A stretch of DNA of 64,000 bases from Candidatus Omnitrophota bacterium (GCA_016177405.1 JACOVG010000033.1:41486-105485); one strand, 5' to 3'; counted from the stretch's first letter, positions 15,276 to 53,320 are shown. Program-made: numbers and translations. Notes: a model not told the origin generated them from the letters alone.

Positions 15276-15285
15276 TATATTGCAG

Positions 15286-15309: not shown

Positions 15310-15333
15310 CTATCCATAGAGGAGGGCAACCGG

Positions 15334-17667: not shown

Positions 17668-17672
17668 CGGAG

Positions 17673-31710: not shown

Positions 31711-32820
31711 ATGAGGCTTCGTTTTCGGGAATTCTTTGCCGTGGCCCTCGCATTGGCCCTGGCCTGGGGCTTGCGGGGCCAGCACGGTCACGAGAGGGGC
31801 GCCGCCATCGTGGGCGCGATGGCCGGCCTTTCGCTGGCTGCCGCCACGGGGGGAGCCCGCTGGATCGGGGCCGCGGTGATCGGTTCCCTCGGTTTTGCCA
31901 TCGGCGGCGCTTTAAGCTACGGCCGTTTTGTCCATCTGGCTTATGAGGGTTCCTGGGAGGCGATCGGTTCCCTGGGGCTGATCGGCCTTGGCTGGGGGGG
32001 ATTGGGCTGTTTGGGCCTGGGCCTGGGCCTGGGGATCGCGAGGTATCGGCCGTGGGAAAGGGCCGCGCTGGCCGGCGGTTTGTTCCTGGTCTGGTTTCTG
32101 GTGGACCGGCTGCTCTGGGGGCACCTGAAGGGGCCTCAAGATTTGGCCACCCGGGAGCTGATGGCGGTGGTTCTTTTAGGGGCGTGGGCGCTGTTCTCGG
32201 CTTATGTGGGGGCCTGGCGGCAGGACAAGGATTCCCTGAAGCTCGCCGCCATCGGGGGCGCCGGATTTGGTCTTGGGTTTCCCTTGGCGGCCTGGGTGCA
32301 GGGGTTGGGAGGTTTAAGCGGCCTGCCGGTGGATTGGTGGAAAATGGGGGAGCACCTGATCGGCCTCCTGGGCGGCGTGACCCTGGCGGCGGCCGTTCAG
32401 ATCCTTCCCCCCACCTGGAATTTGCCCTTGGCCATCCGGCCCTGGGAGCGATGGCTCGCCTTCGTGTGGCTACTTTGGCTTCTTCCCGTGTGGCTCATTG
32501 CCAACAACCTGGATTACTGGATCGCGGAGCGAGCCCTTCTTCCTTTGTGGGCGGGCAAGGTGGTGTGGAGTCTCCTCTTTCTTATCCTGGCCGGATTGAT
32601 CCTCTACGGTTTTTTCGAGATTCGGCGGGGCCGGGCCTTTGTCACCTCGTGGCTTCCGAAGCGCTTGAGGGGAATCTTTCTTGCCTTCCTTTGGATCACC
32701 ACCGTCATCGGAAGCTCCAAAACCATTCTGGCCGAGGGATTTACCACCACCTCCATCGGCTTCTTCGCGCTGGCAGCCCTCATTACCCTGTCTCTGCGGC
32801 CCAGCCGCGCCTCTAGATAA
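31711..32820 (+). CDS. Polytopic membrane protein, hypothetical
   Basis: 369 aa with ~10 TM segments, Gly/Leu/Trp-rich. No catalytic motif. Confidence 0.55.
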   Translation: MRLRFREFFAVALALALAWGLRGQHGHERGAAIVGAMAGLSLAAATGGARWIGAAVIGSLGFAIGGALSYGRFVHLAYEGSWEAIGSLGLIGLGWGGLGCLGLGLGLGIARYRPWERAALAGGLFLVWFLVDRLLWGHLKGPQDLATRELMAVVLLGAWALFSAYVGAWRQDKDSLKLAAIGGAGFGLGFPLAAWVQGLGGLSGLPVDWWKMGEHLIGLLGGVTLAAAVQILPPTWNLPLAIRPWERWLAFVWLLWLLPVWLIANNLDYWIAERALLPLWAGKVVWSLLFLILAGLILYGFFEIRRGRAFVTSWLPKRLRGIFLAFLWITTVIGSSKTILAEGFTTTSIGFFALAALITLSLRPSRASR

Positions 32821-32853
32821 ACTTACCGTTACTATTAAAATTTTCTTGACCCC

Positions 32854-32891
32854 TTGCTTTATTCCCTTCCATAGGCCATGCTTAAAAGTGA
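32854..32891 (+). promoter_or_regulatory. Promoter TTGCTT-N17-GGC-CATGCT (GCCATAsT class, copy 1) within an AT-rich island
   Basis: TTGCTT at 32854-32859 and CATGCT at 32877-32882, then TTAaaaGTGA. Region 32821-32947 is far more AT-rich than the flanks. It sits upstream of the excisionase-family gene. Confidence 0.5.
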
Positions 32892-32947
32892 TGAACAAGA
32901 ATGAAATACAAATAAGAAAACTGATAAAAACTGAAGATTGGTAAAGC

Positions 32948-33160
32948 ATGAGCCCAGAGATATTGACCATCAATCAAGTGGCCGACCTTCTTCACCTTCA
33001 TGAGATGACGGTCTACCGACTTGCCAAGGAGGGTAAGCTCCCAGGTTTCAAGGTGGGCGGGCGATGGCGCTTTCAGCGCGACGCCCTGGAAACCTGGATG
33101 GTGGACCGGGCGCAGGTGGCCCGCCTGGAGGGGGAAGTTAAAAGGAAGAAGGACGCTTAA
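32948..33160 (+). CDS. Excisionase-family (MerR-like) HTH DNA-binding protein
   Basis: 70 aa with the TIGR01764-type pattern LTINQVADLLHLHEMTVYRLAKEGKLPGFKVGGRWRF. Confidence 0.65.
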   Translation: MSPEILTINQVADLLHLHEMTVYRLAKEGKLPGFKVGGRWRFQRDALETWMVDRAQVARLEGEVKRKKDA

Positions 33161-33180
33161 GGCCGACAGGAGAAGAAACG

Positions 33181-33579
33181 ATGCCTGGCAAGAACATTCT
33201 GCTGGTGGACGACGAACCGGATCTGGTGCAGTTGGTCAGCTTGCGCCTGACCTCCGCCGGCTACGAAGTGGCGACAGCCATGGATGGACAGCAGGCGCTG
33301 GATCAGGTCAAGAAGGCCAAGCCCGACCTCATCATCTTGGATCTGATGCTGCCCAAGCTGGATGGCTACAAGGTCTGCCGCCTGCTCAAGTTCGATGAGC
33401 GGTACAAGGCGATCCCCGTCCTCATCTTCACGGCCCGGGCCCAGGCCCAGGACATCCAGCTCGCCATGGAGTGCGGCGCCGACGCCTATATGACCAAGCC
33501 CTTTGACGCGGCGGGCTTGCTTGCCAAGGTGAGCGAGCTCATGAACGAGGAGCGCGCCCCGCGAGGGGAAGCCTCTTAA
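33181..33579 (+). CDS. Single-domain response regulator (CheY-like receiver)
   Basis: LLVDDEP, phospho-acceptor Asp in IILDLMLP, and KPF near the C-terminus. Confidence 0.85.
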   Translation: MPGKNILLVDDEPDLVQLVSLRLTSAGYEVATAMDGQQALDQVKKAKPDLIILDLMLPKLDGYKVCRLLKFDERYKAIPVLIFTARAQAQDIQLAMECGADAYMTKPFDAAGLLAKVSELMNEERAPRGEAS

Positions 33580-33590
33580 AGGAAGAGCCC

Positions 33591-35234
33591 ATGACGGCAG
33601 CCCGCAGGCGAGAACTTCTTTCGCAGTGGATCGATAAGCTGGAAGGGCGCCTGAATCTGGATCCCCTGATCCAGGAGGCCTGCGGGGCCCTTCTTCGCCT
33701 AAGCGGCGCCGACCGCTGCTCCATCATGGTGCTGGACTCCTCCACCGAGGAGCTGTCCGTCCGATGGGCGGAAGGGATCCGGGTCAAGCCCTTTGGCAAG
33801 GTCAAGTTCAAGCTGGGGGAAGGAATGTGCGGCTGGGTCGCCCAAGCGCAGAAGCCCCTGTACAGCTTTGACGTCACCAAGGAAAACCGGTTTCTTCCCT
33901 CGGCCGCTTCCCGCCCGCGTCCGCTGAAGCCGGTCCGGGCCTTCTGCTGTCTGCCCTTGACCTCGGAGGGCCGCGCCATCGGCGTGGTGAATCTCTCCAC
34001 CTTCAAACCGAAGAGCCGGTTCAGCTCCTACGTCAAGCAGAGGCTGACCCAGGAGTTTTTGAGGAGGCTGGCCAAGGTCATCGCGCAGGCGGCCCTCCTG
34101 CGGGAAACCGAGGCGGCCTCGGAACGCTTCAGAAGGCTTCTTAAGAGCACCTCCGAGACGGTGGCCCAGGTCAGCCACGAGGTCCGCACCCCCTTGACCC
34201 TGATTACCGAAGGCGCGCAGCAGCTCTTGGACGGCATTCAAGGGCCGCTGGATCCCCGGCAAAAGGAGAGCCTCGAAAGGATCAAGGCGCAGACCGGGCG
34301 GATGCTTCGGCTGGTCAACGAGCTGTTGGACCTTTCCCGGATAGAGGCGGGCCGGCTCTCCCTTTACCGCAAACCCCTGGGGATGGGCGAATTGGTTCAA
34401 GAGGCGATTCACCGCTACGAACCGCTGATCGCTCCCCGCAAGCTCACCCTCCAGCTGGATTCGGTCCCGCCGGTCTATGGGGATCGCTCCCGCTTGACCC
34501 AGGTGGTGGAGAACCTCATCACCAATGCCGTGAAATTCACCTCCCCCAGCGGGGCCTTGGGGATCTCCTTGAAGGCCAAGGATCGTTGGGCCGAGCTGGG
34601 GGTGAGCGACACCGGGGCCGGAATGCCCAAGAGGGAGCAGGGGCGCCTTTTCGAGAAGTTCTTTCAAGGGAAGATGCCGGCCGGGTCGGTGGTGAAGGGA
34701 ACGGGACTGGGCTTGACGATCGTCAAGGAGATCGTTCAGCTTCATGCCGGGACGATCCGCGTCCGGTCTCGAGCCGGCGAAGGGACAACCTTCACGGTGA
34801 GCCTTCCACTCTACAGCCCGGCCTTCGCCCTGACCGAGGAGTTTGGCGCGATGCGCCGGCAGTCGGCCCGCGAGGGGACGGCCCTGTGCTGCCAGCTGTT
34901 TACGGCCCATTCCCGGACCCCGGTTTCCTGGCGGGAGGCGGCGGCTCTTTTCTCAAGGCACGTCTCCCGGGAGGACCGGGTTTTGGACCATCCCGAGGGA
35001 GGCCTGGTCATCCTTTCCGTTTCCGATCCCGCCGGGTTTGAGGCGATGCGCAAGCGCCTCGAGGGGGTGTTGAGCGCTCATCCGGAGATGATTCCCCCTT
35101 CCGGGATCGGCTGGGGATGGGCCTTGGTTCCGCAGGAGGCCGCCGACCTCGCCGAAGCCCTGCGCCTGGCCCGCGAGCGCGGCCAGGCGCGTTCGGAGAA
35201 TTTGGTCAAGAGCATCCGGGCCCTGGGAGATTAA
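33591..35234 (+). CDS. GAF-domain sensor histidine kinase with uncharacterised C-terminal extension
   Basis: N-terminal GAF domain. H-box SHEVRTPLT. HATPase G-boxes (DTGAGM, GTGLGLTIV). About 130 aa follow with no recognised domain. Confidence 0.8.
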   Translation: MTAARRRELLSQWIDKLEGRLNLDPLIQEACGALLRLSGADRCSIMVLDSSTEELSVRWAEGIRVKPFGKVKFKLGEGMCGWVAQAQKPLYSFDVTKENRFLPSAASRPRPLKPVRAFCCLPLTSEGRAIGVVNLSTFKPKSRFSSYVKQRLTQEFLRRLAKVIAQAALLRETEAASERFRRLLKSTSETVAQVSHEVRTPLTLITEGAQQLLDGIQGPLDPRQKESLERIKAQTGRMLRLVNELLDLSRIEAGRLSLYRKPLGMGELVQEAIHRYEPLIAPRKLTLQLDSVPPVYGDRSRLTQVVENLITNAVKFTSPSGALGISLKAKDRWAELGVSDTGAGMPKREQGRLFEKFFQGKMPAGSVVKGTGLGLTIVKEIVQLHAGTIRVRSRAGEGTTFTVSLPLYSPAFALTEEFGAMRRQSAREGTALCCQLFTAHSRTPVSWREAAALFSRHVSREDRVLDHPEGGLVILSVSDPAGFEAMRKRLEGVLSAHPEMIPPSGIGWGWALVPQEAADLAEALRLARERGQARSENLVKSIRALGD

Positions 35235-36845
35235 GTGGGAGCCATCAGGTCGTCCGAAGAGAAGCTGGTCGAGGAGGGGCTGATCACGGCCGAGCAGCTG
35301 AATCAGGCCCGCGCCGAGGCGGCGCGAAAGGGCCAATCGGTCCGGCAGGCCCTGGTGAGCTTGGGGGCGATCGATCCCAAGGCCCTGGCCCACTGGTTGA
35401 GCCGCGAGCTGAACCTTCCCCAGGTGGAGCTTAAGACCTATCTCGTGGATACCCAGGTGGTGGATCTGATTCCGGAGGCCTTGGCCAGGAAGCACCGGGT
35501 GATCCCCCTGTTCAAGGTGGGCTCCGCGCTGACCGTCGCGACCGCCGATCCGCTCAACCTCGCGGCCCTGGACGATCTGCGGTTGAAGAGCGGCTTGAAC
35601 GTGGAGCCGGTGGTCGCCACCGACGAGGAGATCGGCCAGGCCCTGGAGGAATATTACGGAGCCAAGGGCCGGTGGGACGAAATGGTCTCCCACCTGACCC
35701 AGGAGCGCCTGGGGATGGCGACGGGCGCCGAGCCGGAGCTCGCGAAGCTCAAAGGGCTCGTGGAGGAGCCGCCGATCGTGCGCCTGGTGAATCTCCTCCT
35801 GGCCGACGCGATCCACTGCCGCGCCTCCGACATCCACCTGGAGCCGGAGAGGGAGCTCTTGAAGGTCCGCTTCAGGGTGGACGGTCTCTTGAGGGAGTCG
35901 AGCGCCCTCCCCAAGCACCTGGAATCTGCCGTGATCTCCCGCATCAAGATCCTGGCCAGCCTCGACATTGCCGAGCGCCGCAAGCCGCAGGACGGCCGTT
36001 TCCGAGTTTCGATGGAGGGCCATGAGGTGGACCTGCGCGTCTCCGTGATGCCGGCGATCGACGGAGAAACGGTGGTTCTGCGCCTTCTGGACGCCTCCGG
36101 GCTTCAGTTGGACTTGAATCAGCTGGGCATGGAGCCCGAGCTTCTGGCCCGGTATCAGACTCTTCTCAAGCGCCCCTGGGGGATCCTCCTGGTCACGGGG
36201 CCCACAGGGTCGGGTAAGACCACCACCCTCTACGCCTCCCTGGCCACCCTCAATGCCGGCCAGCAGAACATCGTGACGATCGAGGATCCGGTCGAGTACC
36301 GGCTCAAGGGGATCCGGCAGATTCCGATCAACCCGGCGGTGGGCCTCACCTTTGCCTCGGGTTTGCGCTCCATCCTGCGCCAGGACCCGGATGTGATCCT
36401 GGTGGGGGAGATCCGCGACCGGGAGACGGCCGAGACCGCCGTCCAGGCGGCCCTCACCGGACACCTCGTTCTTTCCACCCTGCACACGAACGACGCCCCC
36501 ACCGCGATCACCCGCTTGATCGACATGGGGATGGAGCCGTTTCTGGTCGCTTCCAGCGTGATCGGCGTGGCGGCCCAGCGGCTGGTTCGGACGGTCTGCC
36601 CCGAGTGCAAGGCCCCCCGGAAGGGCTGCCGAAAATGCGGGAACACCGGCTACAAGGGAAGGATCGGAGTCTTTGAGCTGATGGTTATGAACGATGAGCT
36701 GGGCCGGCTGACCGTGGCCAAGGCCCCCACCGACCAGCTGCGCGCCTGCGCCTGCCGGAGCGGGATGCGCCTCCTGCGGGAGGATGGGATGTTGAGGGCC
36801 TCCTCCGGCCTCACCACCCCCGAAGAGGTCTTGAGGGTCACCTAA
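35235..36845 (+). CDS. Type IV filament assembly ATPase (GspE/PilB family)
   Basis: N-terminal GSPII_E N-domain. Walker A GPTGSGKTTT. Asp and His boxes. Tetracysteine motif CPECKAPRKGCRKCGNTGYKGR. Confidence 0.9.
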   Translation: MGAIRSSEEKLVEEGLITAEQLNQARAEAARKGQSVRQALVSLGAIDPKALAHWLSRELNLPQVELKTYLVDTQVVDLIPEALARKHRVIPLFKVGSALTVATADPLNLAALDDLRLKSGLNVEPVVATDEEIGQALEEYYGAKGRWDEMVSHLTQERLGMATGAEPELAKLKGLVEEPPIVRLVNLLLADAIHCRASDIHLEPERELLKVRFRVDGLLRESSALPKHLESAVISRIKILASLDIAERRKPQDGRFRVSMEGHEVDLRVSVMPAIDGETVVLRLLDASGLQLDLNQLGMEPELLARYQTLLKRPWGILLVTGPTGSGKTTTLYASLATLNAGQQNIVTIEDPVEYRLKGIRQIPINPAVGLTFASGLRSILRQDPDVILVGEIRDRETAETAVQAALTGHLVLSTLHTNDAPTAITRLIDMGMEPFLVASSVIGVAAQRLVRTVCPECKAPRKGCRKCGNTGYKGRIGVFELMVMNDELGRLTVAKAPTDQLRACACRSGMRLLREDGMLRASSGLTTPEEVLRVT

Positions 36846-36862
36846 GGGAGAGCAACAAGAGC

Positions 36863-38092
36863 ATGCCGACCTTCACCTATCAAGCCCGCGACGAATCGGG
36901 GCGGCTGGTCAAGGGAGCCCTGGAGGCGGACTCCCAGGCGGTTTTGGCCGAGCGGCTTCGGAAGATGGGCTATCTCGTCACCCGGATCGAAGAGGCGGCG
37001 CGGGGGATAGGGGGTTGGGCCGAGCTGCGCCTGGGGCGGGCCGTTTCCGGCGAGGATCTGCTCCTCACCTGTTTGCAGTTATCGGCCCTGGCCGGAGCCG
37101 GAGTCCCGCTCACCTCGAGCCTCAAGGCGGTTTCCTCCTCGCGCTCCAAGGAGAACGCCCTGCGGCAGGCCCTGGAGGGGGTGACCCATGAGGTTGAATC
37201 GGGATCCCGATTCTCGCAGGCCCTGGCCTGCCGCCGCGAAATCTTCCCGGAGCTGATGGTGAGCCTGGTGGAGGTGGGAGAGGCCACCGGAAAACTGGAC
37301 CTTGTCCTCTCGCGCTTCGCCCGTTTCCTCGAGAAGGATCTGGCCTTGAGGCGGGAGATCCAGGGGGCGCTGACGTATCCCCTGCTGCTTCTGGCCGCTT
37401 CCAGTCTCCTCATCCTCTTTGTGGTCTCCTTTGTGGTGCCGCAGTTTGCCCTGGTTTTTTTGAAGGCCGGCATCCCCCTGCCGGCCCCCACCCGGTTTCT
37501 GCAGTGGGCCGCCCACCTCATCCAAAGCTACTGGTGGGCCCTGGGTTTTCTGGCGGTCTTGGGGACAGCCGCCGCGGCCTTCGCGTACCGCAAGGCGCCC
37601 ATCCGTCTTAGGGTGGACCGGGCGCTGCTCACGCTTCCGGCGGCGGGGCCGCTTCTGTTGGCGTCGGCGGTCGCCCGCTTCTGCCGGACCTTGGCCACCC
37701 TGGCGGCCAGCGGTGTGGCCATCTTAACAGCCCTTCGGGTGGCCCGGCGCGTGGTGGGCAATCGGGCCCTGGTCCAAGAGGTTGAGCGGGTGGGCCAGGC
37801 GGTCGAACGGGGAGAGAGGATCGCCGCCGCCTTGAGCGTCGGCCGGGTCTTCTCGGCCGACGCGATCCAGATGATCCGCGTGGGGGAGGAGTCGGGAAGG
37901 CTTGATGAGATGCTGGAAAAGGTGGCCGACTTCTATGAACTTAAGGTAAGCTATACCCTAAAGCAAATGACGACTCTTCTGGAACCGGCCCTGCTGGTGG
38001 TCATGGGAGGGGTGACGGCTTTCATCATGGCTTCGCTCCTGCTTCCAATGTTCGACATGGTCAAGGTCCTTCAGCATGGAGGGTTGAGATGA
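36863..38092 (+). CDS. Type IV filament platform protein (GspF/PilC family)
   Basis: 409 aa with two T2SSF repeats and 3 TM segments. Confidence 0.9.
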   Translation: MPTFTYQARDESGRLVKGALEADSQAVLAERLRKMGYLVTRIEEAARGIGGWAELRLGRAVSGEDLLLTCLQLSALAGAGVPLTSSLKAVSSSRSKENALRQALEGVTHEVESGSRFSQALACRREIFPELMVSLVEVGEATGKLDLVLSRFARFLEKDLALRREIQGALTYPLLLLAASSLLILFVVSFVVPQFALVFLKAGIPLPAPTRFLQWAAHLIQSYWWALGFLAVLGTAAAAFAYRKAPIRLRVDRALLTLPAAGPLLLASAVARFCRTLATLAASGVAILTALRVARRVVGNRALVQEVERVGQAVERGERIAAALSVGRVFSADAIQMIRVGEESGRLDEMLEKVADFYELKVSYTLKQMTTLLEPALLVVMGGVTAFIMASLLLPMFDMVKVLQHGGLR

Positions 38093-38553
38093 AGCGGTCA
38101 AGGGGGTTCACGCTCATCGAGCTGATCATCGTGATCGCGGTGATCGCGATCTTGATCGGAATCGCCCTGCCGCGCCTTCGGGGAATGATCGATGAAGGCA
38201 ACACGGCCAAGGCCGGGGCGGAACTGCGGGCCCTCCAGGCGGCGGTGGAATCGTACTACATCCACAACTCCAAAACCTATCCGGCCGACGGCTCCGTCAC
38301 CTGGCAAACCGCCCTGACCGCCTCCACCACCAAACCCAAACTGATCGGCTCGGCCCTCACAGACCCCTTTTCGACCTCCAGCGCCCAGTACTCGTACGAC
38401 AAGTCGTCCAACGGCCTCTACTACGTGATCTGGTCGGTGGGGCCGGACAACACCGCCGACATCACCGCGATCGGCACCGATGGGACCATCTCCGGCGGCC
38501 CCGATGACGATATCTATGTCTCCAACGGCACCTCCGGCACCGGCGGTTTCTAA
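38089..38553 (+). CDS. Major pseudopilin/pilin with prepilin-type N-terminal cleavage/methylation domain
   Basis: MKRSRGFTLIELIIVIAVIAILIGIALP, with Gly-Phe at -1/+1 and Glu at +5. Confidence 0.8.
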   Translation: MKRSRGFTLIELIIVIAVIAILIGIALPRLRGMIDEGNTAKAGAELRALQAAVESYYIHNSKTYPADGSVTWQTALTASTTKPKLIGSALTDPFSTSSAQYSYDKSSNGLYYVIWSVGPDNTADITAIGTDGTISGGPDDDIYVSNGTSGTGGF

Positions 38554-39511
38554 AAGAACCCCGCGGTTCTGGCTCGGAATCCTTTTGGCCTTCTGCACCG
38601 GGGTGGGGCTGTCCCTCTTCGCCTTTTTTGTCCGCGGCGGGGCTGAATCCTGGGCCGTTTTCGCTCTGGGGGTGGCCTCCTCCTCTTTTCTCATCGCCTA
38701 CCTTCTGGTGGATTTCCGCAAGACGGCCGAGGTGAAGAAGCAGGTGGTTCAGCGGACCCTGGAGCTCCAGGAGGCAAACCGGCGGCTGAAGGAGCTCTCC
38801 AGGCTCAAGGACGAATTCATCGCCTCCGTCTCCCACGAGCTGCGCACCCCCTTGACCGTCATCCAAGAAGGAGTGGTTCAGGTTTTGGAGGGAATTTGCG
38901 GGCCCGCCAGCCCCGCCCAACGGCAGTCTCTCTCGATCGCCGTGAGGAACATCGAGCGCTTAAGGCGCCTGATCGAGGATCTCCTGGACATCTCCAAGAT
39001 TGAAACCGGCAGGATGGTCCTGAATCTGGAGACCTTTGATCTGCGGGAGGTTGTTCGGGAGGCGGGCCGGAGCTTCCTTCCGAGGATTCAGGGCAAGGGG
39101 CTTGAGCTGAAGATCCATCTTCCTGAAGGCAAGGTGGCTCTCTACGCGGATCGGGACAGGCTCGCCCAGGTTTTCTCCAACCTGCTGGACAACGCCCTGA
39201 AGTTCACGCGGAAGGGATTCATCGAGATCTGTGTTTTGGAGGAGAGTCGCCGCCAGATTGCCTGCAGGGTCTCGGACACCGGCTTGGGCCTTGCCCCGGA
39301 GTTTCTTTCAAAGCTCTTCCATAAATTTCAGCAGGCCCCCGGCGAGGCCGCCAACGGCGTGAAGGGAACCGGTCTGGGGCTGGCCATCTCCAAGGGAATC
39401 GTGGAGCTCCACGACGGCAGGATTTGGGCCGAGAGCCAACCGGGTCAGGGAACCCGCTTCACCTTCACCCTGCCGGTCAAAACCTTCCCCTCGCAGGCCC
39501 ATGCGGCCTAA
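38516..39511 (+). CDS. Membrane sensor histidine kinase embedded in the pilin gene run
   Basis: Two N-terminal TM segments. H-box SHELRTPLT. HATPase motifs (DNALKFT, DTGLGL, GTGLGLAISK). The start is uncertain: the ATG at 38516 overlaps the pilin gene by 38 nt, and alternative TTG/GTG starts lie near 38590. Confidence 0.7.
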   Translation: MSPTAPPAPAVSKRTPRFWLGILLAFCTGVGLSLFAFFVRGGAESWAVFALGVASSSFLIAYLLVDFRKTAEVKKQVVQRTLELQEANRRLKELSRLKDEFIASVSHELRTPLTVIQEGVVQVLEGICGPASPAQRQSLSIAVRNIERLRRLIEDLLDISKIETGRMVLNLETFDLREVVREAGRSFLPRIQGKGLELKIHLPEGKVALYADRDRLAQVFSNLLDNALKFTRKGFIEICVLEESRRQIACRVSDTGLGLAPEFLSKLFHKFQQAPGEAANGVKGTGLGLAISKGIVELHDGRIWAESQPGQGTRFTFTLPVKTFPSQAHAA

Positions 39512-39884
39512 AGCCCTCCCGGGATTCACCCTGCTGGAGGTGATGATCGCCGTGGTCCTGCTGACCGGCGCCGTCGCGGCGTCCGCCCTTGTTTTCAGCC
39601 GGGCCATTTTTATGACCGCCGACACCGAAACCCTGACGCAGGCGTCGGCCCTCGCCCAGGAGAAGCTGGAGTCTTTGCGGGGAGGTTCTTTCGCCGCCAT
39701 CGCCAGCGAACCCAAGGCCGCCGTCCCGGGCTGGAGCGGTTTTTCGCGGGAGGTCGAGGTCAGCCAGCCTGCCGGAACCAACAGCGATTTCAAACAGATC
39801 GGGGTGACCGTTTACTGGGACACCGTGGATGGGGAGCTTTCGACGGATCTCACCACCTATGTGGCGAATGTGTCGAACAATTGA
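39501..39884 (+). CDS. Minor pseudopilin, GspI/PilV-like
   Basis: Prepilin motif GFTLLEVMIAVVLL. 127 aa. Confidence 0.6.
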   Translation: MRPKALPGFTLLEVMIAVVLLTGAVAASALVFSRAIFMTADTETLTQASALAQEKLESLRGGSFAAIASEPKAAVPGWSGFSREVEVSQPAGTNSDFKQIGVTVYWDTVDGELSTDLTTYVANVSNN

Positions 39885-39885
39885 C

Positions 39886-40455
39886 GTGCCGAAAGCACGT
39901 CATCGCGAGTCCCGCCAACGAACTTTGGCGGGACGTGGCGATCTCGGACTGACCCTGATTGAACTTCTCATCGCCCTGCTTCTGGCGGGAGTTCTCATGA
40001 CGGCGGCAGCCATGTCGTTGAATCCCATCCTGCTGGCCTGGTCCAGCCAAATGGACCGGATAGAGCTCAACCGCCAGCTTCAGCATGGCCTGGAACGGGC
40101 CGTCCGGGATCTGCGAGGCGCGACAAATCTGGCCAACGACACCAACGACGCCATCCGTTACACCTTAAGGGAAAGCGGCGTGAGCAACTCCTACATCCTT
40201 TATCTTTACCACGCCGACGACACCTGGCCGCCCGCCTTCAACCAGACGGCCTACCAACTGCGTAAGGCCAGCCTGACCGGAGGGATCAACGGCACCTTCA
40301 CCTACGGCGGCGGGGACCTCCTGATGCGGGATGTTCAGCCGCCGGCCGCCTCGGACCTGTCGGTGAGCGGTTCGTTGGCGACGTTGGATCTCACCTTGGT
40401 TCGCAAGACGGACGAAACCTTCCGGCTGGTGGAGAAGGTCAAGAGGCGGAACTAA
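39886..40455 (+). CDS. Minor pseudopilin, GspJ/PilW-like
   Basis: Prepilin-like GLTLIELLIALLLAG. The start is uncertain: GTG at 39886, or TTG at 39925 giving the short leader MAGRGDLG. Confidence 0.55.
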   Translation: MPKARHRESRQRTLAGRGDLGLTLIELLIALLLAGVLMTAAAMSLNPILLAWSSQMDRIELNRQLQHGLERAVRDLRGATNLANDTNDAIRYTLRESGVSNSYILYLYHADDTWPPAFNQTAYQLRKASLTGGINGTFTYGGGDLLMRDVQPPAASDLSVSGSLATLDLTLVRKTDETFRLVEKVKRRN

Positions 40456-40456
40456 G

Positions 40457-41281
40457 ATGCGGGGCTCTGTGATGATCATGGCGCTGGCGCTCACGATTCT
40501 CCTGGTGGGCCTGGTGGGCGGCTATCTCTTTACCGTGGGAGTCTTGATCACGAACAGCGGCTGGGAGGAAACCGACGCCAAGACCTTGTGGCTGGCGGAG
40601 GCCGGTTTGCAAAAAGGGATCTGGAACCTGAAAACCCCCGCCGGAAGCGGCGGGCAAGGAGAGAACTGGACGACGGCAGGCACGACAGAAAACCTCGGTG
40701 CCGGGAGTTACACAATGGTTGTCACAAGATATGACTTTGCGCTGGGCACAAACGGAGGAACTGCCTCCGCCTCCTCACAATCAGCACAAGGACAGCGCGC
40801 TTCAAAAGCGATTGATGGGGATGATGAGAGTCGATGGGAATCGGATAACGTTCCAAGCTCGGCCGCGCCGGAACATATTGTCATCAGTTTTCCCTACCCG
40901 CTCACTTTGAACAAGGTTCGTTTTGTAGCGCACTCTTCGAATCAGCGGCCGGTGGATTACACTTGGGGAGTCTCGACGGACGGCTCGGCTTACGCAGTTG
41001 TCGTCACCGTAACAGGAAATGCCGCCACGGACCGCACCGACACGTTCGGTGCGCAGTCAAATGTCAACCATTTGAAACTCATAGTTACGGCGATCGGGGG
41101 CGGCCAAAAAGGAGTCGGTATTTCCAAGCTCGAGGCGATTGGGAGTAAAATCACCTCAATCGGCACCTTGACCGCCACCGGGCAGACGTACACCCGAACC
41201 ATTTCGCAAACGGTGGCGGCGGACGACGGCTCGCCGCAGAATCAAGTGGCCTATTACGAACCGGACTGGGCGGAGGAATGA
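40457..41281 (+). CDS. GspK/PilX-like tip pseudopilin carrying a discoidin (F5/8 type C)-like domain
   Basis: N-terminal TM MRGSVMIMALALTILLVGLVGGYL lacks Glu+5, as in GspK. Residues ~95-235 (ASKAIDGDDESRWESD ... VRFVAHSS ... LKLIVTAIGG) resemble the discoidin repeats of the 17673 gene. Confidence 0.55.
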   Translation: MRGSVMIMALALTILLVGLVGGYLFTVGVLITNSGWEETDAKTLWLAEAGLQKGIWNLKTPAGSGGQGENWTTAGTTENLGAGSYTMVVTRYDFALGTNGGTASASSQSAQGQRASKAIDGDDESRWESDNVPSSAAPEHIVISFPYPLTLNKVRFVAHSSNQRPVDYTWGVSTDGSAYAVVVTVTGNAATDRTDTFGAQSNVNHLKLIVTAIGGGQKGVGISKLEAIGSKITSIGTLTATGQTYTRTISQTVAADDGSPQNQVAYYEPDWAEE

Positions 41282-42864
41282 AAACCAAGCGAATCCTGGC
41301 GATCGAGCTGGGCGGCACGAGCTTCAAGCTGGCGGCGGCCGAAGTGACCGACGGCAAACCGACCCTCACCCGGGTCCGCCGCCTTCCCCTGGCAGCCCCA
41401 ACCGACGAGGCTTCGCGCCGGAAGACCCTCGAGGAGCTCCTTTCCGGGATCGCGCGGGACGCGAAAACCAACGTTGTCGCTCTCGTGGACGATCCCTTCG
41501 CCTTCGTGGGGCCTCTCCTGGTTCCGCCCATGCCCTCCGGCGAGCTGGCCGGAGCGGTCCATTTTGAGCTTCAGCGCGGCCTCCCCATCCCGCCGGAGGA
41601 AGCGGTCGTGGATTATGAAATCTCCGGAGGGGTGGAGAGCCAGGGGGTCAAGAAGCTCAAGCTTCTTGTCGGCGCCCTCCCCCAGCAGACGGTCAACAGC
41701 CAGCTTGCCTTCTTGGCGCGGGCCGGCCTAAAGCCCAGCCGGCTTATTCCCAGGGCGCAGGCGACGGCCGCCTGGTCCAAAGAGGGGGCGGATCCTTCCG
41801 CCGCCAGCCGCGGCATCCTTCGCGTCGGAGGGACCTCTTCGGAGTTTCTCGTGACAAGGGGCGGCCAGATCCTTTTTGTCAGGAAGATCCCGGTCTCCGG
41901 GGGAGATTTCACGCGAGGGATGACGGCCGTTCTGATGACGGCCGCGGGCCAGGTGGGTTTGACCGAAGCCGAGGCCGAGACGGTCAAGCGGACGGTCGGC
42001 ATACCCTCACCCGAATCCAGCAATCCGGCGACCCAGGGAATTCCGGCTTCCCAGATTCTGGCCATGCTGCGGGGCAGTCTCGATCGCCTGGCCGTGGAGG
42101 TGGAGCGCTCGATCGCCTTCTATGGAGAGTCTCAAGGCGGCGGATCGAGCTTGGGAGAGCTTATCCTCGCCGGAGGCGGGGCGCACCTGAAAGGGTTGGA
42201 CCAGTGGCTGGCGAAGAGACTTGGGATTCCGGTGACCGCGCCCGACCCTCTGGCCGGCAGGGCCGTCGCCGCCGGGGCTGTTGAGGAAAATGTGGCAACC
42301 GCGCCCTTGAGCCTGGCGGCGGTGCTGGGGGCTGTGGAGCTTTCCGCGGCGGGCGCGGGGCTTAATCTCTTGCCCCGCCAGATCAGGGAGGCCGCCCAGA
42401 CTCAAGCCAGGCGTTCGGTCCTGGCGGGATCGATCGGCGCGGCGGCGGCCGTCCTGCTTGTGGTGAAGGCTGGGATGGGGATTTACCAGGGGGCGCTTGA
42501 GAAAGAGCTGGCCGCCCTCCGGGTCGAACAGTCCGCGGTGATGTCCCAGCACGCCGCGGCCCAGACGACCTTAAGCGCCTACGAGCTTCTTCGAACCCAG
42601 CCCCCCCTGGAGGAGATCTTCAAGGAGTTGGGCCATGCCGTTCCGGCCCACGCGTACCTGACCCATTTGACCTGGCAGGAGGGTAAGTGGGCCCTTCAGG
42701 GCAAGGTTCGTGAGGTCACCCGAACGGCCGACGCGGTGCTCAACGATTTCCTGCGGGCCCTCTCCGAGGGACCTTTTACCGAGGTGCGGTTGATCGGGAG
42801 CCGGCAGGTGGAGGGGAGCATTCCCAGGGAGTCCGAGTTTGAAGTGAGCTGTCTCTTAAAGTGA
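41278..42864 (+). CDS. PilM-PilN fusion (GspL-like inner-membrane assembly protein)
   Basis: N-terminal actin-like PilM region (ILAIELGGTSFKLA ... GGGAHLKGL). A TM segment and coiled-coil PilN-like region follow (LNLLPRQIREAAQ...LAGSIGAAAAVLLVV). Confidence 0.65.
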   Translation: MKTKRILAIELGGTSFKLAAAEVTDGKPTLTRVRRLPLAAPTDEASRRKTLEELLSGIARDAKTNVVALVDDPFAFVGPLLVPPMPSGELAGAVHFELQRGLPIPPEEAVVDYEISGGVESQGVKKLKLLVGALPQQTVNSQLAFLARAGLKPSRLIPRAQATAAWSKEGADPSAASRGILRVGGTSSEFLVTRGGQILFVRKIPVSGGDFTRGMTAVLMTAAGQVGLTEAEAETVKRTVGIPSPESSNPATQGIPASQILAMLRGSLDRLAVEVERSIAFYGESQGGGSSLGELILAGGGAHLKGLDQWLAKRLGIPVTAPDPLAGRAVAAGAVEENVATAPLSLAAVLGAVELSAAGAGLNLLPRQIREAAQTQARRSVLAGSIGAAAAVLLVVKAGMGIYQGALEKELAALRVEQSAVMSQHAAAQTTLSAYELLRTQPPLEEIFKELGHAVPAHAYLTHLTWQEGKWALQGKVREVTRTADAVLNDFLRALSEGPFTEVRLIGSRQVEGSIPRESEFEVSCLLK

Positions 42865-43442
42865 AGATGACCCCGCCCCTTCTACGCGCTCTGAAGAAGG
42901 TCCAAGGGATGGCCGGGCCGCTTCTTGAGGCGGTCAGGAAAAAACCCAAATGGCTTGGGCCCCTGGCGGCTCTCGGGCTGATCGTTATCCTCTGGTCCCT
43001 CTACGCCGTCCCCTTGGGCCGGATCCGAAAGCTTCAAGCCGGCCTCCTGCCGTTGAAGGAGCAGGTCGCGCGGGCTCAAGAGGTGATCCAAAGGGCGCGC
43101 CAGGTGAATCTGGCCGCTTTGCCGGCGGCCGACGCCTTGCCCCAGGTGCTGGAGGAGCTCAACGCCTTGGCGCGCCAGCACGAGGTTCAATTGGTCAAGA
43201 CAGCCCCCCAGCCGACACGCCCGGCGGAATCCCGGGGGCTGGTGATCCTGCCGCTTGAGCTTCAGGTGGAGGCGGAGTACCGGAATCTCGGGGAATTCTT
43301 GGGGGCTCTGCGAAGGGCGCCGGGCCTGGGCGTGCCGCTGACGCGCCGGATTGCCCTCGGCAGAGAAGAGAGGCTGCTACCGCGGCTTACGGCGACGCTG
43401 ACGATCGACCTCATTTTAAGCGAGGCGCCCGGTGGCTCCTAA
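42861..43442 (+). CDS. PilO/GspM-like assembly protein
   Basis: 193 aa. Single TM (LGPLAALGLIVILWSLYAV), then a coiled-coil and a periplasmic domain. Confidence 0.55.
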   Translation: MKMTPPLLRALKKVQGMAGPLLEAVRKKPKWLGPLAALGLIVILWSLYAVPLGRIRKLQAGLLPLKEQVARAQEVIQRARQVNLAALPAADALPQVLEELNALARQHEVQLVKTAPQPTRPAESRGLVILPLELQVEAEYRNLGEFLGALRRAPGLGVPLTRRIALGREERLLPRLTATLTIDLILSEAPGGS

Positions 43443-43869
43443 AAAAGAGAAGGTGGTCCTGGCCGTCTTGGCGGCGCTGGCCGCGGTGGTCTGGGTGAGG
43501 GGTCTCACCGCCCGTCCGGCAAGGCCCCAACGATCCGCGGCGGCCCCCTCGCTCTCCGGCGCGGCCGTCAGGGGCGCGGGCCAGGGGGCCCAGAAGATGA
43601 CCTCCCGCTTCACCGAATGGGCCGACAGCCCCTTCCTGGTGGAGCGCCGCGGCCGCCCCGATACGAAAGCGGTGCAAGTTCCTGATTCGGGGGGAAGGGC
43701 TCTTGCCGTAAGCGGAATCCTTTGGGATCCCAAGGGTTCTTCGGCCATCGTCAACGGACTGCTGGTCGGCGTGGGGGACGAGGTGGGCGGCTGGAAGGTT
43801 CTGGAGATCCAGAGGGATAAGGTGGTCCTGACCGACGGGGCCAACCTCGAAACCCTCACCGTGGAATAG
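43432..43869 (+). CDS. PilP/GspC-like protein
   Basis: N-terminal TM. The C-terminal beta-domain (AVSGILWDPKGSSAIVNGLLVGVGDEVGGWKVLEIQRDKVVL) is like the PilP C-terminus or the GspC HR domain. GTG start. Confidence 0.5.
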   Translation: MAPKKEKVVLAVLAALAAVVWVRGLTARPARPQRSAAAPSLSGAAVRGAGQGAQKMTSRFTEWADSPFLVERRGRPDTKAVQVPDSGGRALAVSGILWDPKGSSAIVNGLLVGVGDEVGGWKVLEIQRDKVVLTDGANLETLTVE

Positions 43870-43924: not shown

Positions 43925-45136
43925 ATGCGGGAACGGGTGATCTTGCTGGTGGACATGGACGCCTTCTTCGCCTCCTGCGAGCAGGCGGCCGACCCGCGGC
44001 TTGCCGGCAAGCCGGTCATCGTCTGCGGCAATTTCAAAAAGCGCTCGGTGGTGGCCGCCTGCTCCTATGAAGCCAAGGCCCACGGCGTTGGCAACGGAAT
44101 GCCGGTCCCCGAAGCGCTGGCCCTCTGTCCTGGGGCGGTGCTGGTGGCGGGAAATCCGGACAGGTACACCCGCGTCGCCCGCCTGATCTTTGAGGGGCTG
44201 ATCCGCTACACGCCCCTTATCGAGATCGTCTCCATCGACGAGGCCTTCCTGGATGTGACCGACACCCACCCTCGCTTTGGATCGCCGCAGGCCATCGCGG
44301 TGGAAATTCAACGCCGCGTGGAGATGGAGTTTCACCTCTCCTGCACCGTGGGGATCGGGCCCAACAAACTGCTGGCCAAGCTGGCCGCCAAGCTGAACAA
44401 GCCGCGCGGCATCGGTCGGATCGGCCGCGAGGAGGTTCCCGACCTTTTAAAAAACCTTCCGGCGGATAAGGTCAACGGCATCGGGCCGGCCATCACCAGA
44501 ACCCTTCTTTCGATGGGGATCGCCACCTTGGGAGAGCTGGCCCAGCTTCCCGTGTCAAGGCTGACCAGCCGCTTCGGCTTTTACGGGGAGCTTCTTTTCC
44601 GGATGGCCCGCGGGATCGATGAGAGCCCTGTGCTGCCGATCGATTCTCCGGAGGTAATCAAATCCATGGGCCATGCCTATACCCTGGATCAGGATACCCG
44701 GGATCCGGCGATCGTCCAGGGGACGTTGCTCAAACTCTCCGAGAAGGTGGGCCGCCGCTTGAGAGCCGCCGGTTTGCGCGGCAAGACGGTGTGGGTTGTT
44801 TTACGTTTTTCGGATTTCTCCGCGGTCAGCCGACAGAAGACCTTGGGCGAGGGCCTTTGCGAGGGCCTTGCCATCTACCGGGCCGCGGGCCGCTTGCTTG
44901 CCGAGATCTGGTCTGCCGGCGGCAGACCGGTCAGGCTGGTGGGGGTGGGGGTGTCGCATCTTCTGGCGGCCCCCGAGAACGTGGATCTCTGGGAGGACCG
45001 CCAGCGCCAGAGGCGCCTGACGGCGAGCTTGGACCGGATCAACGATTGCTTCGGAGAGGAGACGGCCTTCCGGGCGGCGACCCTGGTTCCCTTTACCGAG
45101 AAGACCCGCGGCTATTTTGGCCACCGTTGGTTTTAG
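43925..45136 (+). CDS. dinB: DNA polymerase IV (DinB)
   Basis: ILLVDMDAFFASCEQ Y-family catalytic motif. 403 aa. Confidence 0.9.
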   Translation: MRERVILLVDMDAFFASCEQAADPRLAGKPVIVCGNFKKRSVVAACSYEAKAHGVGNGMPVPEALALCPGAVLVAGNPDRYTRVARLIFEGLIRYTPLIEIVSIDEAFLDVTDTHPRFGSPQAIAVEIQRRVEMEFHLSCTVGIGPNKLLAKLAAKLNKPRGIGRIGREEVPDLLKNLPADKVNGIGPAITRTLLSMGIATLGELAQLPVSRLTSRFGFYGELLFRMARGIDESPVLPIDSPEVIKSMGHAYTLDQDTRDPAIVQGTLLKLSEKVGRRLRAAGLRGKTVWVVLRFSDFSAVSRQKTLGEGLCEGLAIYRAAGRLLAEIWSAGGRPVRLVGVGVSHLLAAPENVDLWEDRQRQRRLTASLDRINDCFGEETAFRAATLVPFTEKTRGYFGHRWF

Positions 45137-45209
45137 CCGCCTCCGGAGCATCCTTTTTCCTTTCCAACAGGAAAGGGGGTGTGCTATCTATAAGGAGGGC
45201 ACCACACCC

Positions 45210-46916
45210 ATGCGCAGACCTCTTGTTCTCCAAACGAGCCTATTTCTGCTGTGCGGGCTCCTCGCGGGAGTTGCCTGGGCGGCCCAGCGGGACATCGAGG
45301 TGGGCTCCGAGGAGGAGCGGCTAAGAAGGCCTCGAATCCTGGAAGTGCCAGAGCGGGCCGTCATCCCCGTCGAAATCCCTCCGGAGGAGCCACTCCCCGC
45401 CACCGCGGCAGACCTGCCACCTGTCCTGGTAGCCCAGGTTGTGATCGACGGAGCGACCGTCCTGCCGGAAAAGGAGGCCCGCCGGCTGACCGCCCCTGTG
45501 GAAGGCCGGACCGTTTCCCTCAAAGAGCTCCAAGAAACCACCCGCACCATCACCCGTTGGTATCGAGGCAAGGGGTACGTCACCTCCCGCGCCTTGGTTC
45601 CTGCCCAGACGGTTCAGAAGGGGAGCGTTCGCCTGCGGGTGGTGGAAGGGAAGGTGGGCCTGGTGAAGATAGAGGGAAACCGCCATTTCTCCACCGAGCT
45701 GCTTCAACGGTACCTCCGGATCCATTCCGGGGAGGTCTTCAACCTCTTCCGGGTTGAGGAAGGACTGGTCCAGCTCAATGCCCATCCGGATCGCAAAGCC
45801 AAGCTGGTCCTTACCCCTGCCAAGGAGCCGGAGACCTCGGACCTCATCCTGCAGGTGACCGACCAAGGACCCTTCCACGCCAACTACGGCGTGGATACCC
45901 TGGGAACCAAAGAGACCGGTTTGATCCGGCAGAGCTTAGGTCTGGCCCACGGAAATCTGACCGGCCATGACGACCAGCTCTTTGTGCGTGGCATCGTGAC
46001 GGAGTTTGCCGGCCTCTGGGGTGGAGCCATGAGCTACCTCCGTCCTCTGACCCCGAGAGGAGCTGCCGCCAGCCTGGAGGTGAGCGGCGTCAAGTCTTCC
46101 GTGGGAGGGGACCTGAAGAATCTGATCGCCAAGGGGAATGCCCTCACCATCAGTCCCAGCCTGATCCTGCCGTGGGTGAAGCGAGCGGCCTTCGAGCTGG
46201 AGGCGACCGCCGGTTTTGACTTCAAAAGGGTTCGGACCTTCCGTGACGAAAGGAGCAACTCCAAGGACGACCTCCGGGTTTTTCGGGTGGGGACCAACCT
46301 CCTTTCGCAAGATGTCCGGGGCAGGAGTCTCATCGTTCAGGAACTCCGAGTAGGACTTCCCAACATCCTCGGCGGTTCCCATGGGGAAGAGGTAGCCGCC
46401 AGCCGGGCTAAGGCCGGTGGTTCCTTCATCCGATGGGTGGCGAATCTGGTGAGGATTCACCGGGGGCCTTGGGGTACCACCCTTGTCTTCCGGGGCTCTG
46501 GCCAACTGACGACCGACCGGCTGGTCCCGGCGGAACAGTTCCGACTGGGCGGTTTTGACACGGTGCGCGGCTACCCCGAGGGAGAATTCCTCGCCGACGC
46601 GGGCTACCAAGCCACGGTGGAGGTGCGCGCCCCGACGGAGAAGTTTCTTCCGGCTTGGGGGGGCCAAAGCTCCCCGTGGGGACGCCTGCGCCGCTCCCTG
46701 CTGGTGGTCGGTTTCTGGGATTTTGCCGAGGGGTTTGTGCGGGACCCAGCCGCCGGGGAGGATGCCGACATGCGCCTGGCCGGGGCCGGGTGTGGCCTGC
46801 GTCTGCGCCCCACCTCGGAATCGGTCCTGCAGGCCGATTTTGGCTGGGCCTTTGGCGACCGGGATGCCGAGAAGGACCGCCCCCGAATCCACCTGATCTG
46901 CCGGATTGGATTCTAA
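45210..46916 (+). CDS. Two-partner secretion outer-membrane transporter (TpsB; ShlB/FhaC/HecB family)
   Basis: Signal peptide MRRPLVLQTSLFLLCGLLAGVAWA. POTRA region (ITRWYRGKGYVTSRA...VVEGKVGLVKIEGNRHF). VRGY loop-6 motif (FDTVRGYPEGEF). C-terminal aromatic residue. Internal Met32 chosen as the start. Confidence 0.8.
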   Translation: MRRPLVLQTSLFLLCGLLAGVAWAAQRDIEVGSEEERLRRPRILEVPERAVIPVEIPPEEPLPATAADLPPVLVAQVVIDGATVLPEKEARRLTAPVEGRTVSLKELQETTRTITRWYRGKGYVTSRALVPAQTVQKGSVRLRVVEGKVGLVKIEGNRHFSTELLQRYLRIHSGEVFNLFRVEEGLVQLNAHPDRKAKLVLTPAKEPETSDLILQVTDQGPFHANYGVDTLGTKETGLIRQSLGLAHGNLTGHDDQLFVRGIVTEFAGLWGGAMSYLRPLTPRGAAASLEVSGVKSSVGGDLKNLIAKGNALTISPSLILPWVKRAAFELEATAGFDFKRVRTFRDERSNSKDDLRVFRVGTNLLSQDVRGRSLIVQELRVGLPNILGGSHGEEVAASRAKAGGSFIRWVANLVRIHRGPWGTTLVFRGSGQLTTDRLVPAEQFRLGGFDTVRGYPEGEFLADAGYQATVEVRAPTEKFLPAWGGQSSPWGRLRRSLLVVGFWDFAEGFVRDPAAGEDADMRLAGAGCGLRLRPTSESVLQADFGWAFGDRDAEKDRPRIHLICRIGF

Positions 46917-46946
46917 GAGCTAACTTTTTCGTCGTTCAATTTCTAC

Positions 46947-46984
46947 TTGCTTTTCCATGTTTCATCGGCCATAGTTTAAGGTGA
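46947..46984 (+). promoter_or_regulatory. Promoter TTGCTT-N17-GGC-CATAGT (GCCATAsT class, copy 2) for the TpsA gene
   Basis: TTGCTT at 46947-46952 and CATAGT at 46970-46975, then TTAagGTGA. Lower-GC intergenic region. Confidence 0.5.
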
Positions 46985-47013
46985 GTCGTTTCTAGTTCCA
47001 AGTCCCTTTAATA

Positions 47014-52770: not shown

Positions 52771-52963
52771 AGGGGCAAGTTGGCAAGTGTGGTAAAGGTT
52801 CTTTAACAACACATCATAGCGGGGACCTGTCTCAAGGCACACCTGTCGTAAGGCAGGGTCGCAAAGCTAGAGGGTCCGCCAAAGTTCTCCGGCGGATAGC
52901 CAGTTGCCAGGTCAAGATTCCAGATTCAGGCCCTCGCGCTCTTAACCGCGGAGGGCCTATTTC

Positions 52964-53320
52964 ATGTCTAGGAATCTGTTGTGGAGTCTCGGGGTCTTGA
53001 GTTTGGCAGCGCTTTTCGGTTTCTTCCTCAATACCCTTGTTTCAAATACCTACGCAGAAACTTCTGTTTTCTCTTCTCTGGCAAGCCCGACCTTAGAGAC
53101 CAGGCAGCTTTCCTCTGGCGCTTCTGTCCCTGCGATGCCCGGCTTGGCTTCTCCGATTGCCTCCAGCACGCGGGGTTCTACCCGGGTGGTGGAACTGCCC
53201 AACCGGATTAGCCTGGATCGGCTTCGCCGGGAGAATTACCGCTATCCGGATCATGACTTGGCGAATCGGTTGGTGGAGGTGGCGACCGAGCGTCCGCCCC
53301 TCTTCGGATCGGATTTCTAA
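52964..53320 (+). CDS. Small secreted hypothetical protein (118 aa)
   Basis: Signal peptide MSRNLLWSLGVLSLAALFGFFLNTLVSNTYA. RBS GGAGGG lies within a hairpin (GGCCCTC...GAGGGCC). Confidence 0.45.
   Translation: MSRNLLWSLGVLSLAALFGFFLNTLVSNTYAETSVFSSLASPTLETRQLSSGASVPAMPGLASPIASSTRGSTRVVELPNRISLDRLRRENYRYPDHDLANRLVEVATERPPLFGSDF

Follow-up and report, generated by a model that had tools for sequence, protein, structure and literature searches.

The 64,000-nucleotide stretch analyzed here (Candidatus Omnitrophota bacterium, GCA_016177405.1 JACOVG010000033.1:41486-105485; hereafter the window) contains a chain of 13 co-directional genes on the + strand at 32948-43869, identified by ORF listing together with Pfam and NCBIfam scans. 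Neighboring genes are separated by gaps of 0-20 nt or overlap by 4-11 nt. Together they encode a full set of the cytoplasmic and inner-membrane core parts of a single type IV filament machine. A preliminary description of this DNA had recognized a tight co-directional type IV filament cluster here, and nearly all of its domain calls hold in the Pfam and NCBIfam scans; it gave the number of genes as twelve, although its own list also has 13 items.

A small DNA-binding protein of the HTH_17 helix-turn-helix (HTH) family, of excisionase/BldC type, opens the chain (32948-33160; 70 aa; Pfam HTH_17, E 1.9e-17, with NCBIfam excise domain and BldC-family matches). It is followed by a CheY-like single-domain response regulator consisting of a receiver (REC) domain only (33181-33579; 132 aa; Pfam Response_reg, E 2.3e-30, covering the whole protein), and by a cytoplasmic GAF-HisKA-HATPase histidine kinase (33591-35234; 547 aa; Pfam GAF, HisKA, and HATPase_c) whose N terminus has no hydrophobic stretch. 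The genes of the filament machine itself come next, with a second kinase gene among them.

Composition of the filament operon

The motor is an assembly ATPase of the PilB/GspE family with an N-terminal MshEN domain (35235-36845; 536 aa; Pfam T2SSE, 440 bits, and MshEN). It falls below both NCBIfam equivalog cut-offs, scoring 606.8 bits for PilB (TIGR02538; cut-off 675.65) and 583 bits for GspE (TIGR02533; cut-off 630), and its core aligns at 340-344 bits to PilB structures versus 338-339 bits to GspE structures. On these scores it is equidistant from the two families. Its 51% identity to the ATPase of an outgroup locus resembling that of the mannose-sensitive haemagglutinin (MSH) pilus is above that to every other reference compared. 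The adjoining gene encodes a full two-domain T2SSF platform protein of the GspF/PilC family (36863-38092; 409 aa; Pfam T2SSF in two stretches, 184 bits). It too lies under every NCBIfam cut-off, with GspF (TIGR02120) the best model at 338 bits (cut-off 424) and the PilC models at 264-291 bits (cut-off 700). Nor do the motor and platform reach the thresholds of the Com and Tad models, with 260 bits for ComGA (300), 128 for ComGB (240), and 51 for the TadA family (373).

The 3′ end of the operon encodes a PilM-PilN fusion (41278-42864; 528 aa; Pfam PilM_2 and PilN), a PilO-family protein (42861-43442; 193 aa; Pfam PilO, 31.8 bits against a cut-off of 22), and a small bitopic protein resembling PilP and the HR region of GspC (43432-43869; 145 aa; weak Pfam T2SSC and NCBIfam GspC matches). 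The cytoplasmic domain of the fusion is a full PilM by fold, with PilM as its top fold match and no GspL chain within the top 60. The protein is a real PilM joined to PilN and is GspL-like only in being a single polypeptide. Such fusions are not rare: at least 150 cluster representatives match it at E <= 1e-30, in the main across the greater part of the query length. All 13 PilO orthologues examined match Pfam PilO, and the alignment proteins PilM, PilN, and PilO of the type IVa pilus (T4aP) are all represented. Orthologues of the PilP-like protein match T2SSB (8), Y4YQ_C (7), CdsD_C (4), and T2SSC (3).

The major pilin is of GspG type (38089-38553; 154 aa; Pfam N_methyl, and T2SSG at 23.5 bits against a gathering score of 21). 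It gives a full-length match to the GspG chain 5wda (PDB), and its alignment to E. coli GspG takes in the C-terminal G-x-D...DDI loop; against the NCBIfam model TIGR01710 it scores 51.7 bits (cut-off 88.85). A membrane-anchored HisKA-HATPase kinase with two transmembrane (TM) helices is inserted between the major and minor pilins (38480-39511; 343 aa; Pfam HisKA and HATPase_c), with its start at 38480, 38504, or 38516. Minor pilin 1 (39501-39884; 127 aa; Pfam N_methyl) carries the leader MRPKALPG↓FTLLE, gives a sub-threshold match to NCBIfam PilV (E 4.9e-8), and, as a profile hidden Markov model (HMM), matches minor pilins of Patescibacteria type IV pili (T4P) at E 1e-13 to 1e-17. Minor pilin 2 (39829-40455; ∼195-208 aa) has its N_methyl match at residues 40-61 and the sequence G↓LTLIE, and its start is probably 39868; as for the second kinase, the start is uncertain by a few dozen bases. 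When the Omnitrophota profiles were aligned by hhalign to single E. coli Gsp and Hof proteins, little matched beyond the N-terminal helix, except for a weak preference of minor pilin 2 for GspJ (79% probability over 75 residues).

The third minor pilin (40457-41281; 274 aa) occupies the GspK/PilX position, lacks Glu5, and carries an F5/8 type C domain. Its C-terminal module is a CBM32 lectin by fold, grafted onto an N-terminal hydrophobic pilin helix, as in modular type IV pilins. The labels GspI-, GspJ-, and GspK-like originally given to the minor pilins lack specific support: in both canonical minor pilins Pfam finds N_methyl alone, with no T2SSI, T2SSJ, or T2SSK match in the window or in orthologues, and the third is a CBM32 modular pilin. 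In 9 of 14 loci, the module at this position is CBM32/F5-8 type C. It is swapped for other folds in the remaining five (L006, L009, L011, L015, and L016), which show bactofilin-like β-helix, DUF7305, or PilX_N signatures, while the ∼100-residue N terminus is conserved. The fibre tip is predicted to bind glycan, as lectin-bearing modular minor pilins do in the T4P of Streptococcus sanguinis (PMC9934059).

Missing secretin and prepilin peptidase genes

No substantial ORF of the 64-kb window matches Secretin (PF00263) or Peptidase_A24, in agreement with the preliminary description. A secretin HMM built from 120 secretins, and E. coli GspD and HofQ, likewise found no match among the six-frame ORFs of the window (minimum length 70 aa) or in the ∼17 related loci. 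The same description had called the cluster self-contained, which does not fit, since two functions needed by every diderm type IV filament machine are not encoded.

The slot for a secretin gene after the PilP-like gene is empty in all ∼17 related loci, including those at 31-32% PilMN identity. The nearest full-length relatives of the fusion outside Omnitrophota (28% identity) lie in Desulfobacterota-type loci, in which the order is fusion, PilO-like protein, PilP-like protein, MshL-type secretin, AAA protein, TPR protein, and MshEN-ATPase. An HMM of the Omnitrophota PilP-like proteins matches the gene directly 5′ of the secretin in outgroup loci (5e-12 in L088, 2e-10 in L018, and 0.003 in L065). 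The Omnitrophota protein is thus an orthologue of a secretin-coupling protein, and the ancestral slot is empty clade-wide.

The window also contains TolC-like, AcrB, and Omp85-family genes, so the organism is diderm and a fibre or its cargo must cross the outer membrane. Retention of a PilP-type protein argues for a secretin partner encoded elsewhere. With the L018 secretin as query, only MshL-type proteins of Desulfobacterota and similar taxa were returned, and the supplements of PMC10066038 contain no occurrence of pilQ, gspD, or secretin. The same study reports an RcpA secretin gene in other Omnitrophota loci, and gspD has been described beside giant genes in Omnitrophota (bioRxiv 10.1101/2023.11.21.568195). 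Prepilin peptidases are often common to several systems, and T4aP are typically encoded at multiple loci (PMC6668835). Considering the retained PilP-like protein, the secretins elsewhere in the phylum, and these published precedents together, supply of both secretin and peptidase in trans would be the likeliest arrangement.

Conservation, regulators, and neighboring genes

Genomes and metagenomes contain ∼17 distinct loci with this gene order, at PilMN identities as low as 31-37%. The synteny comparison suggested in the preliminary description has thus been made, and the arrangement recurs; what had been described as non-canonical does fail the NCBIfam T2SS (type II secretion system), PilB, Com, and Tad model cut-offs, but it is a conserved clade locus rather than a one-off. 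The F5/8 (third minor pilin) protein is 100% identical to one annotated in a Candidatus Omnitrophica metagenome-assembled genome. Full-length PilMN relatives at 41-49% identity are from Omnitrophota wherever named, and several of the genome records are labeled “uncultured Planctomycetia.” A class II ribonucleotide reductase (RNR) gene adjoins the operon in at least seven genomes. As the order is conserved in ∼17 loci, usually beside the class II RNR gene, the operon is a vertically inherited core feature of one clade of Omnitrophota, within the Planctomycetes-Verrucomicrobia-Chlamydiae (PVC) superphylum, and not a mobile island.

Compared with the protein of the window, orthologues have a median identity of 78% for the major pilin (across 17 loci), 67% for the ATPase, 57% for the platform, 43% for PilMN, 38% for PilO, and 40% for the PilP-like protein, which makes the major pilin the most conserved structural component. 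Orthologues of the HTH protein stand first in the operon in eight related loci (median identity 77%), the GAF kinase is kept in 11 loci (55%), and relatives have one to three REC-only genes at the response-regulator position. Two of the related loci contain a second T2SSE-family ATPase, 40%-41% identical to the assembly ATPase (L090:17454-18851, −, and L097:17424-18881, −). It lies ∼5 kb 3′ of the operon, past RNR and DUF1802, a position that GltB occupies in the window. A PilZ domain is present at the N terminus of the L090 copy.

The embedded regulatory module noted in the preliminary description stands, with three to four proteins; the regulators in the window are two orthodox kinases, one REC-only protein, and one small HTH protein. 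The two TM helices of the embedded kinase are joined by a six-residue loop, RGGAES, leaving almost no periplasmic loop, and the kinase is therefore predicted to be unable to sense a periplasmic ligand via a classical domain. PilS senses pilin in the membrane, and by analogy the embedded kinase may monitor the pilin pool. Its slot between the major and minor pilins is conserved, while the sensor type varies and the gene is not found in L006 or L009. Several terminator-like hairpins with T tracts occur at 38600-38685 (+), just past the major pilin stop and early in the kinase ORF. They could attenuate read-through past the pilin gene, but they are no more numerous than in shuffled sequence.

In three sister genomes, the orthologue of minor pilin 1 (L003:7830-8609, L089:8741-9493, and the L010 ORF 6844-8553) has an N-terminal CheY-like receiver fused in frame, with no stop codon. 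The receiver ends at the prepilin cleavage motif (...RRG↓FTLVE or ...KRG↓FTLVE) and retains the characteristic receiver residues (DD, D, T/S, and K), such that it forms a ∼125-residue leader peptide of the prepilin. The fusion is always directly 3′ of the embedded kinase. In L097 and L095/L096 a stand-alone receiver gene takes this position, and there is none in the window. A literature search for a receiver domain together with a prepilin found nothing.

The operon is preceded by an AT-rich intergenic region at 32821-32947 (+), a probable operon promoter/operator of 127 bp with 32% GC versus 63% for the window; the preliminary description had likewise placed an AT-rich stretch at the head of the cluster. 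A block, CCCTTG(T/C)WTTT...TCAGCCATNCTTAA, is kept 5′ of the HTH gene in seven genomes. One weak sigma-70-like match lies at 32814-32841, and for the region as a whole such matches are not above chance. Further upstream, 31711-32820 (+) encodes a 369-aa polytopic membrane protein with no Pfam match, found immediately 5′ of the operon in four related loci at 62%-67% identity, and with invariant motifs that include WGLRGQHGHERG. It was considered as a divergent prepilin peptidase and ruled out, as there is no GxGD-type motif among the invariant Asp residues of the four-orthologue alignment.

On the 3′ side, a DinB gene and a two-partner secretion (TPS) pair, TpsB/TpsA, occupy 43925-52692, between the pilus operon and a riboswitch. 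The adjoining TPS genes noted in the preliminary description are borne out: TpsB (45117-46916) has POTRA_2 and ShlB domains, and the TpsA-like protein of 1,892 aa (47014-52692) is homologous to a TPS-domain protein. The stretch from DinB to the TpsB/TpsA pair looks like an adhesin module inserted at this site. In L001/L005, L008, and L089/L101, TpsB stands directly 3′ of the PilP-like gene, which it overlaps by 4 nt in L001. Most other loci lack TpsB, and in genomes without it a cyclic di-GMP (c-di-GMP) riboswitch or housekeeping genes directly follow the operon. TpsB as a stand-in outer-membrane conduit or conserved component was rejected, given its presence in only ∼4 of ∼17 distinct loci and its own cognate TpsA.

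The c-di-GMP-I riboswitch lies at 52826-52911 (+) and scores 56 bits (gathering score 35). It is followed by a 118-aa protein with a signal peptide and no Pfam match (ORF 52964-53320). In L097 and L003 the riboswitch is directly 3′ of the pilus operon, ahead of a small secreted transglutaminase-like (DUF553) protein, and in L005 it comes after TpsA; it is a conserved neighbor of the operon.

Two further regions lie upstream. The first, 15280-22112 (+), encodes a transglutaminase-core protein of 795 aa and, after it, a protein of 1,517 aa that has four F5/8 type C and two VWA domains and is predicted to be a second large glycan-binding or adhesive protein, ∼11 kb 5′ of the operon. A 550-aa ORF at 11946-13598 (−), upstream of AcrB, combines an N-terminal MarR-type winged helix with C-terminal OEP/TolC repeats; it represents an unusual fusion, unless the longest-ORF rule has run two genes together.

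Affinities and proposed function of the fibre

The mixture of T2SS-like and T4aP-like traits put forward in the preliminary description is confirmed, as a GspG-like fibre on a PilM/N/O platform. The operon shares with the T4aP of Myxococcus xanthus, Thermus thermophilus, and Pseudomonas aeruginosa a PilB-like ATPase, a PilC-like platform, PilO, a PilP-like protein, N-methylated pilins, and priming minor pilins. Kinase genes stand beside pilin genes in T4aP, as pilS-pilR, and do so here. In contrast to T4aP, however, PilM and PilN are fused, no PilQ gene follows the PilP-like gene, the window has no PilT/PilU, PilD, or PilY1, the major pilin resembles GspG and is highly conserved, REC-only and HTH_17 proteins serve as regulators in place of a sigma-54 PilR, and the ATPase is under the NCBIfam PilB cut-off. 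With the T2SS (Vibrio Eps, Klebsiella Pul, and E. coli Gsp), the operon could be said to have in common its GspG-type major pseudopilin, single ATPase, platform with GspF as best model, small HR-like protein in the manner of GspC/GspB, and, as GspL does, a single chain that holds both the cytoplasmic and the periplasmic domain of the platform. Unlike a T2SS, it has no GspD or GspO, its fusion is PilM and PilN by sequence and fold, PilO takes the place of GspM, and there are three minor pilins instead of four, none matching the GspH/I/J/K models and one bearing a lectin instead of the GspK α-domain.

The Desulfobacterota MSH-like loci (L018 and L088) have the same order of fusion, PilO-like, and PilP-like genes and an ATPase with one MshEN domain, 51% identical to that of the window, but they continue with an MshL-type secretin, AAA, and TPR genes after the PilP-like gene and have neither a kinase among the pilins nor a CBM32 pilin. 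PilMN matches the NCBIfam Amuc_1101 family (E 2.9e-26, residues 4-433) of the Amuc_1098-1102 cluster of Akkermansia muciniphila, which also belongs to the PVC superphylum, although at 92 bits against a cut-off of 650. The Akkermansia cluster includes a secretin. Finally, S. sanguinis T4P have modular pilins in which a binding module is likewise grafted onto the pilin (vWA-like in PilB, lectin in PilC; PMC9934059, PMC8179133), whereas here the module is CBM32/discoidin, a predicted binder in a diderm PVC bacterium, and is exchanged in sister genomes.

We favor, with moderate confidence, an adhesive glycan-binding fibre, encoded by a conserved Omnitrophota operon and provided with secretin and peptidase from another locus. 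The lectin tip, the swapping of tip modules, the adjacent adhesin genes, and the c-di-GMP element are the grounds for this preference. Prepilins would enter the inner membrane and be processed by a peptidase encoded elsewhere. By homology to the initiation complexes of T2SS and T4P, the three minor pilins would form a priming complex with the CBM32 pilin distal. The ATPase and platform, both present in the operon, would then act as in homologous machines, the ATPase driving the platform while the GspG-type pilin polymerizes beneath the priming complex. PilMN, PilO, and PilP would, again by homology, hold the machine and link it to the secretin. A short or non-retractile fibre of this kind could fasten the cell to polysaccharide surfaces or to the envelope of a host or prey cell. 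Its expression or assembly may be gated by the GAF kinase and the membrane-embedded kinase via the single-domain receiver, with the small HTH protein taking part. These functional statements are predictions.

Several observations weigh against this reading. A GspG-like major pilin with 78% conservation behaves as a T2SS endopilin rather than as a surface-exposed T4aP pilin, and the window has no retraction ATPase (PilT). The placement of the lectin pilin at the fibre tip has as its basis only gene position and the absent Glu5. No secretin lies within the ∼10-kb flanks of any of the ∼17 related loci, and the absence on which trans supply is argued was scanned in the window and in those ∼10-kb flanks. 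The NCBIfam model of the MshEN c-di-GMP motif scores 31 bits on the ATPase (cut-off 38), and the key Arg, Gly, and Gln positions of the motif are substituted when read by eye, so a direct c-di-GMP input to the motor is doubtful.

A divergent T2SS, in which a periplasmic GspG-type endopilus pushes folded exoproteins through a secretin encoded elsewhere, is a serious but less likely alternative. Its cargo could be, for example, the neighboring large F5/8-VWA protein or glycoside hydrolases, with the CBM32 tip pilin touching glycosylated cargo or the secretin. Such a role would suit the major pilin, which clears the Pfam T2SSG gathering score, can be aligned to GspG with the acidic loop at the C terminus included, and exceeds the other structural proteins of the operon in conservation. 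It would also suit the single ATPase with no PilT in the window, the GspF model as the best for the platform, and the joining of PilM to PilN in an architecture similar to that of GspL. Loci resembling a T2SS have been recorded in Omnitrophota, and the T2SS has been re-identified in many non-proteobacterial phyla (PMC6668835). However, every NCBIfam T2SS equivalog score is below its cut-off, the fusion is PilM by fold and not GspL, the next protein is PilO and not GspM, the minor pilins number only three and carry no specific GspH/I/J/K signal, and neither GspD, GspO, nor a PDZ-containing GspC was found in the window. Swapping of tip modules better suits an exposed adhesin, and GspG-like folds occur in genuine Thermus T4P pilins too (PMC5131608).

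We consider it quite unlikely that the operon is a derivative of the MSH lineage without MshL, MshM, and MshN. MshI itself is a PilM/PilN fusion, and the fusion here would be MshI-like, followed by MshJ-like and MshK-like proteins and served by an MshE-like ATPase. The 28% identical fusions outside Omnitrophota do lie in loci with an MshL-type secretin, the ATPase has its 51% identity to that of such a locus, and the PilO and PilP HMMs match neighboring genes there. Set against this, the operon has no MshL, MshM-like AAA, or MshN-like TPR gene, its order differs in that ATPase and platform come first, and the outgroups are few, with a sampling biased by the search patterns. MSH and T2SS are moreover both described as arising within T4aP (PMC6668835), and affinity is hard to resolve at such depth. 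A truly secretin-less machine, with a periplasm-confined fibre or a non-secretin outer-membrane route following clade-wide loss of the ancestral secretin, seems very unlikely. It would account for the slot that is empty in all ∼17 loci, in some of which housekeeping genes or the riboswitch come immediately after the operon, and which in outgroup loci holds the secretin exactly. Against it, the PilP-like coupling protein is retained and conserved, the organism is diderm (TolC-like, Omp85-family, and AcrB genes), secretins occur elsewhere in the phylum, the absence covers ∼10-kb flanks, and TpsB, the sole outer-membrane protein found nearby, is present at only ∼4 of ∼17 loci and has its own TpsA substrate. 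A further and unlikely idea combines loss of the clade's dedicated secretin with two-component signaling that acts directly on filament initiation: the embedded kinase would phosphorylate a receiver domain, in three sister genomes the one that forms the prepilin leader, and thereby gate processing or insertion of the priming pilin, not transcription.

A TXSScan survey has reported “most components” of T4aP across Omnitrophota (PMC10066038), and chimeric or “generic” type IV filament systems have been documented (PMC6668835). What is new here is the specific combination of parts, the secretin slot that is empty clade-wide, the kinase among the pilin genes, and the receiver-prepilin fusion in sister genomes. 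The locus offers a clean example near the T4aP/T2SS/MSH split, pairing a GspG-type fibre with a PilM/N/O platform, and shows conserved loss or relocation of a secretin gene. If the receiver-prepilin fusions are real proteins, they would represent a new way of coupling signaling to pilus assembly. Omnitrophota are uncultured, mostly ultra-small, and suspected to be host-dependent or predatory, and pili provide one of the few hints in their genomes of the way in which they bind to partners. The operon looks like the core attachment or secretion device of its clade, and its tip predicts a glycan ligand.

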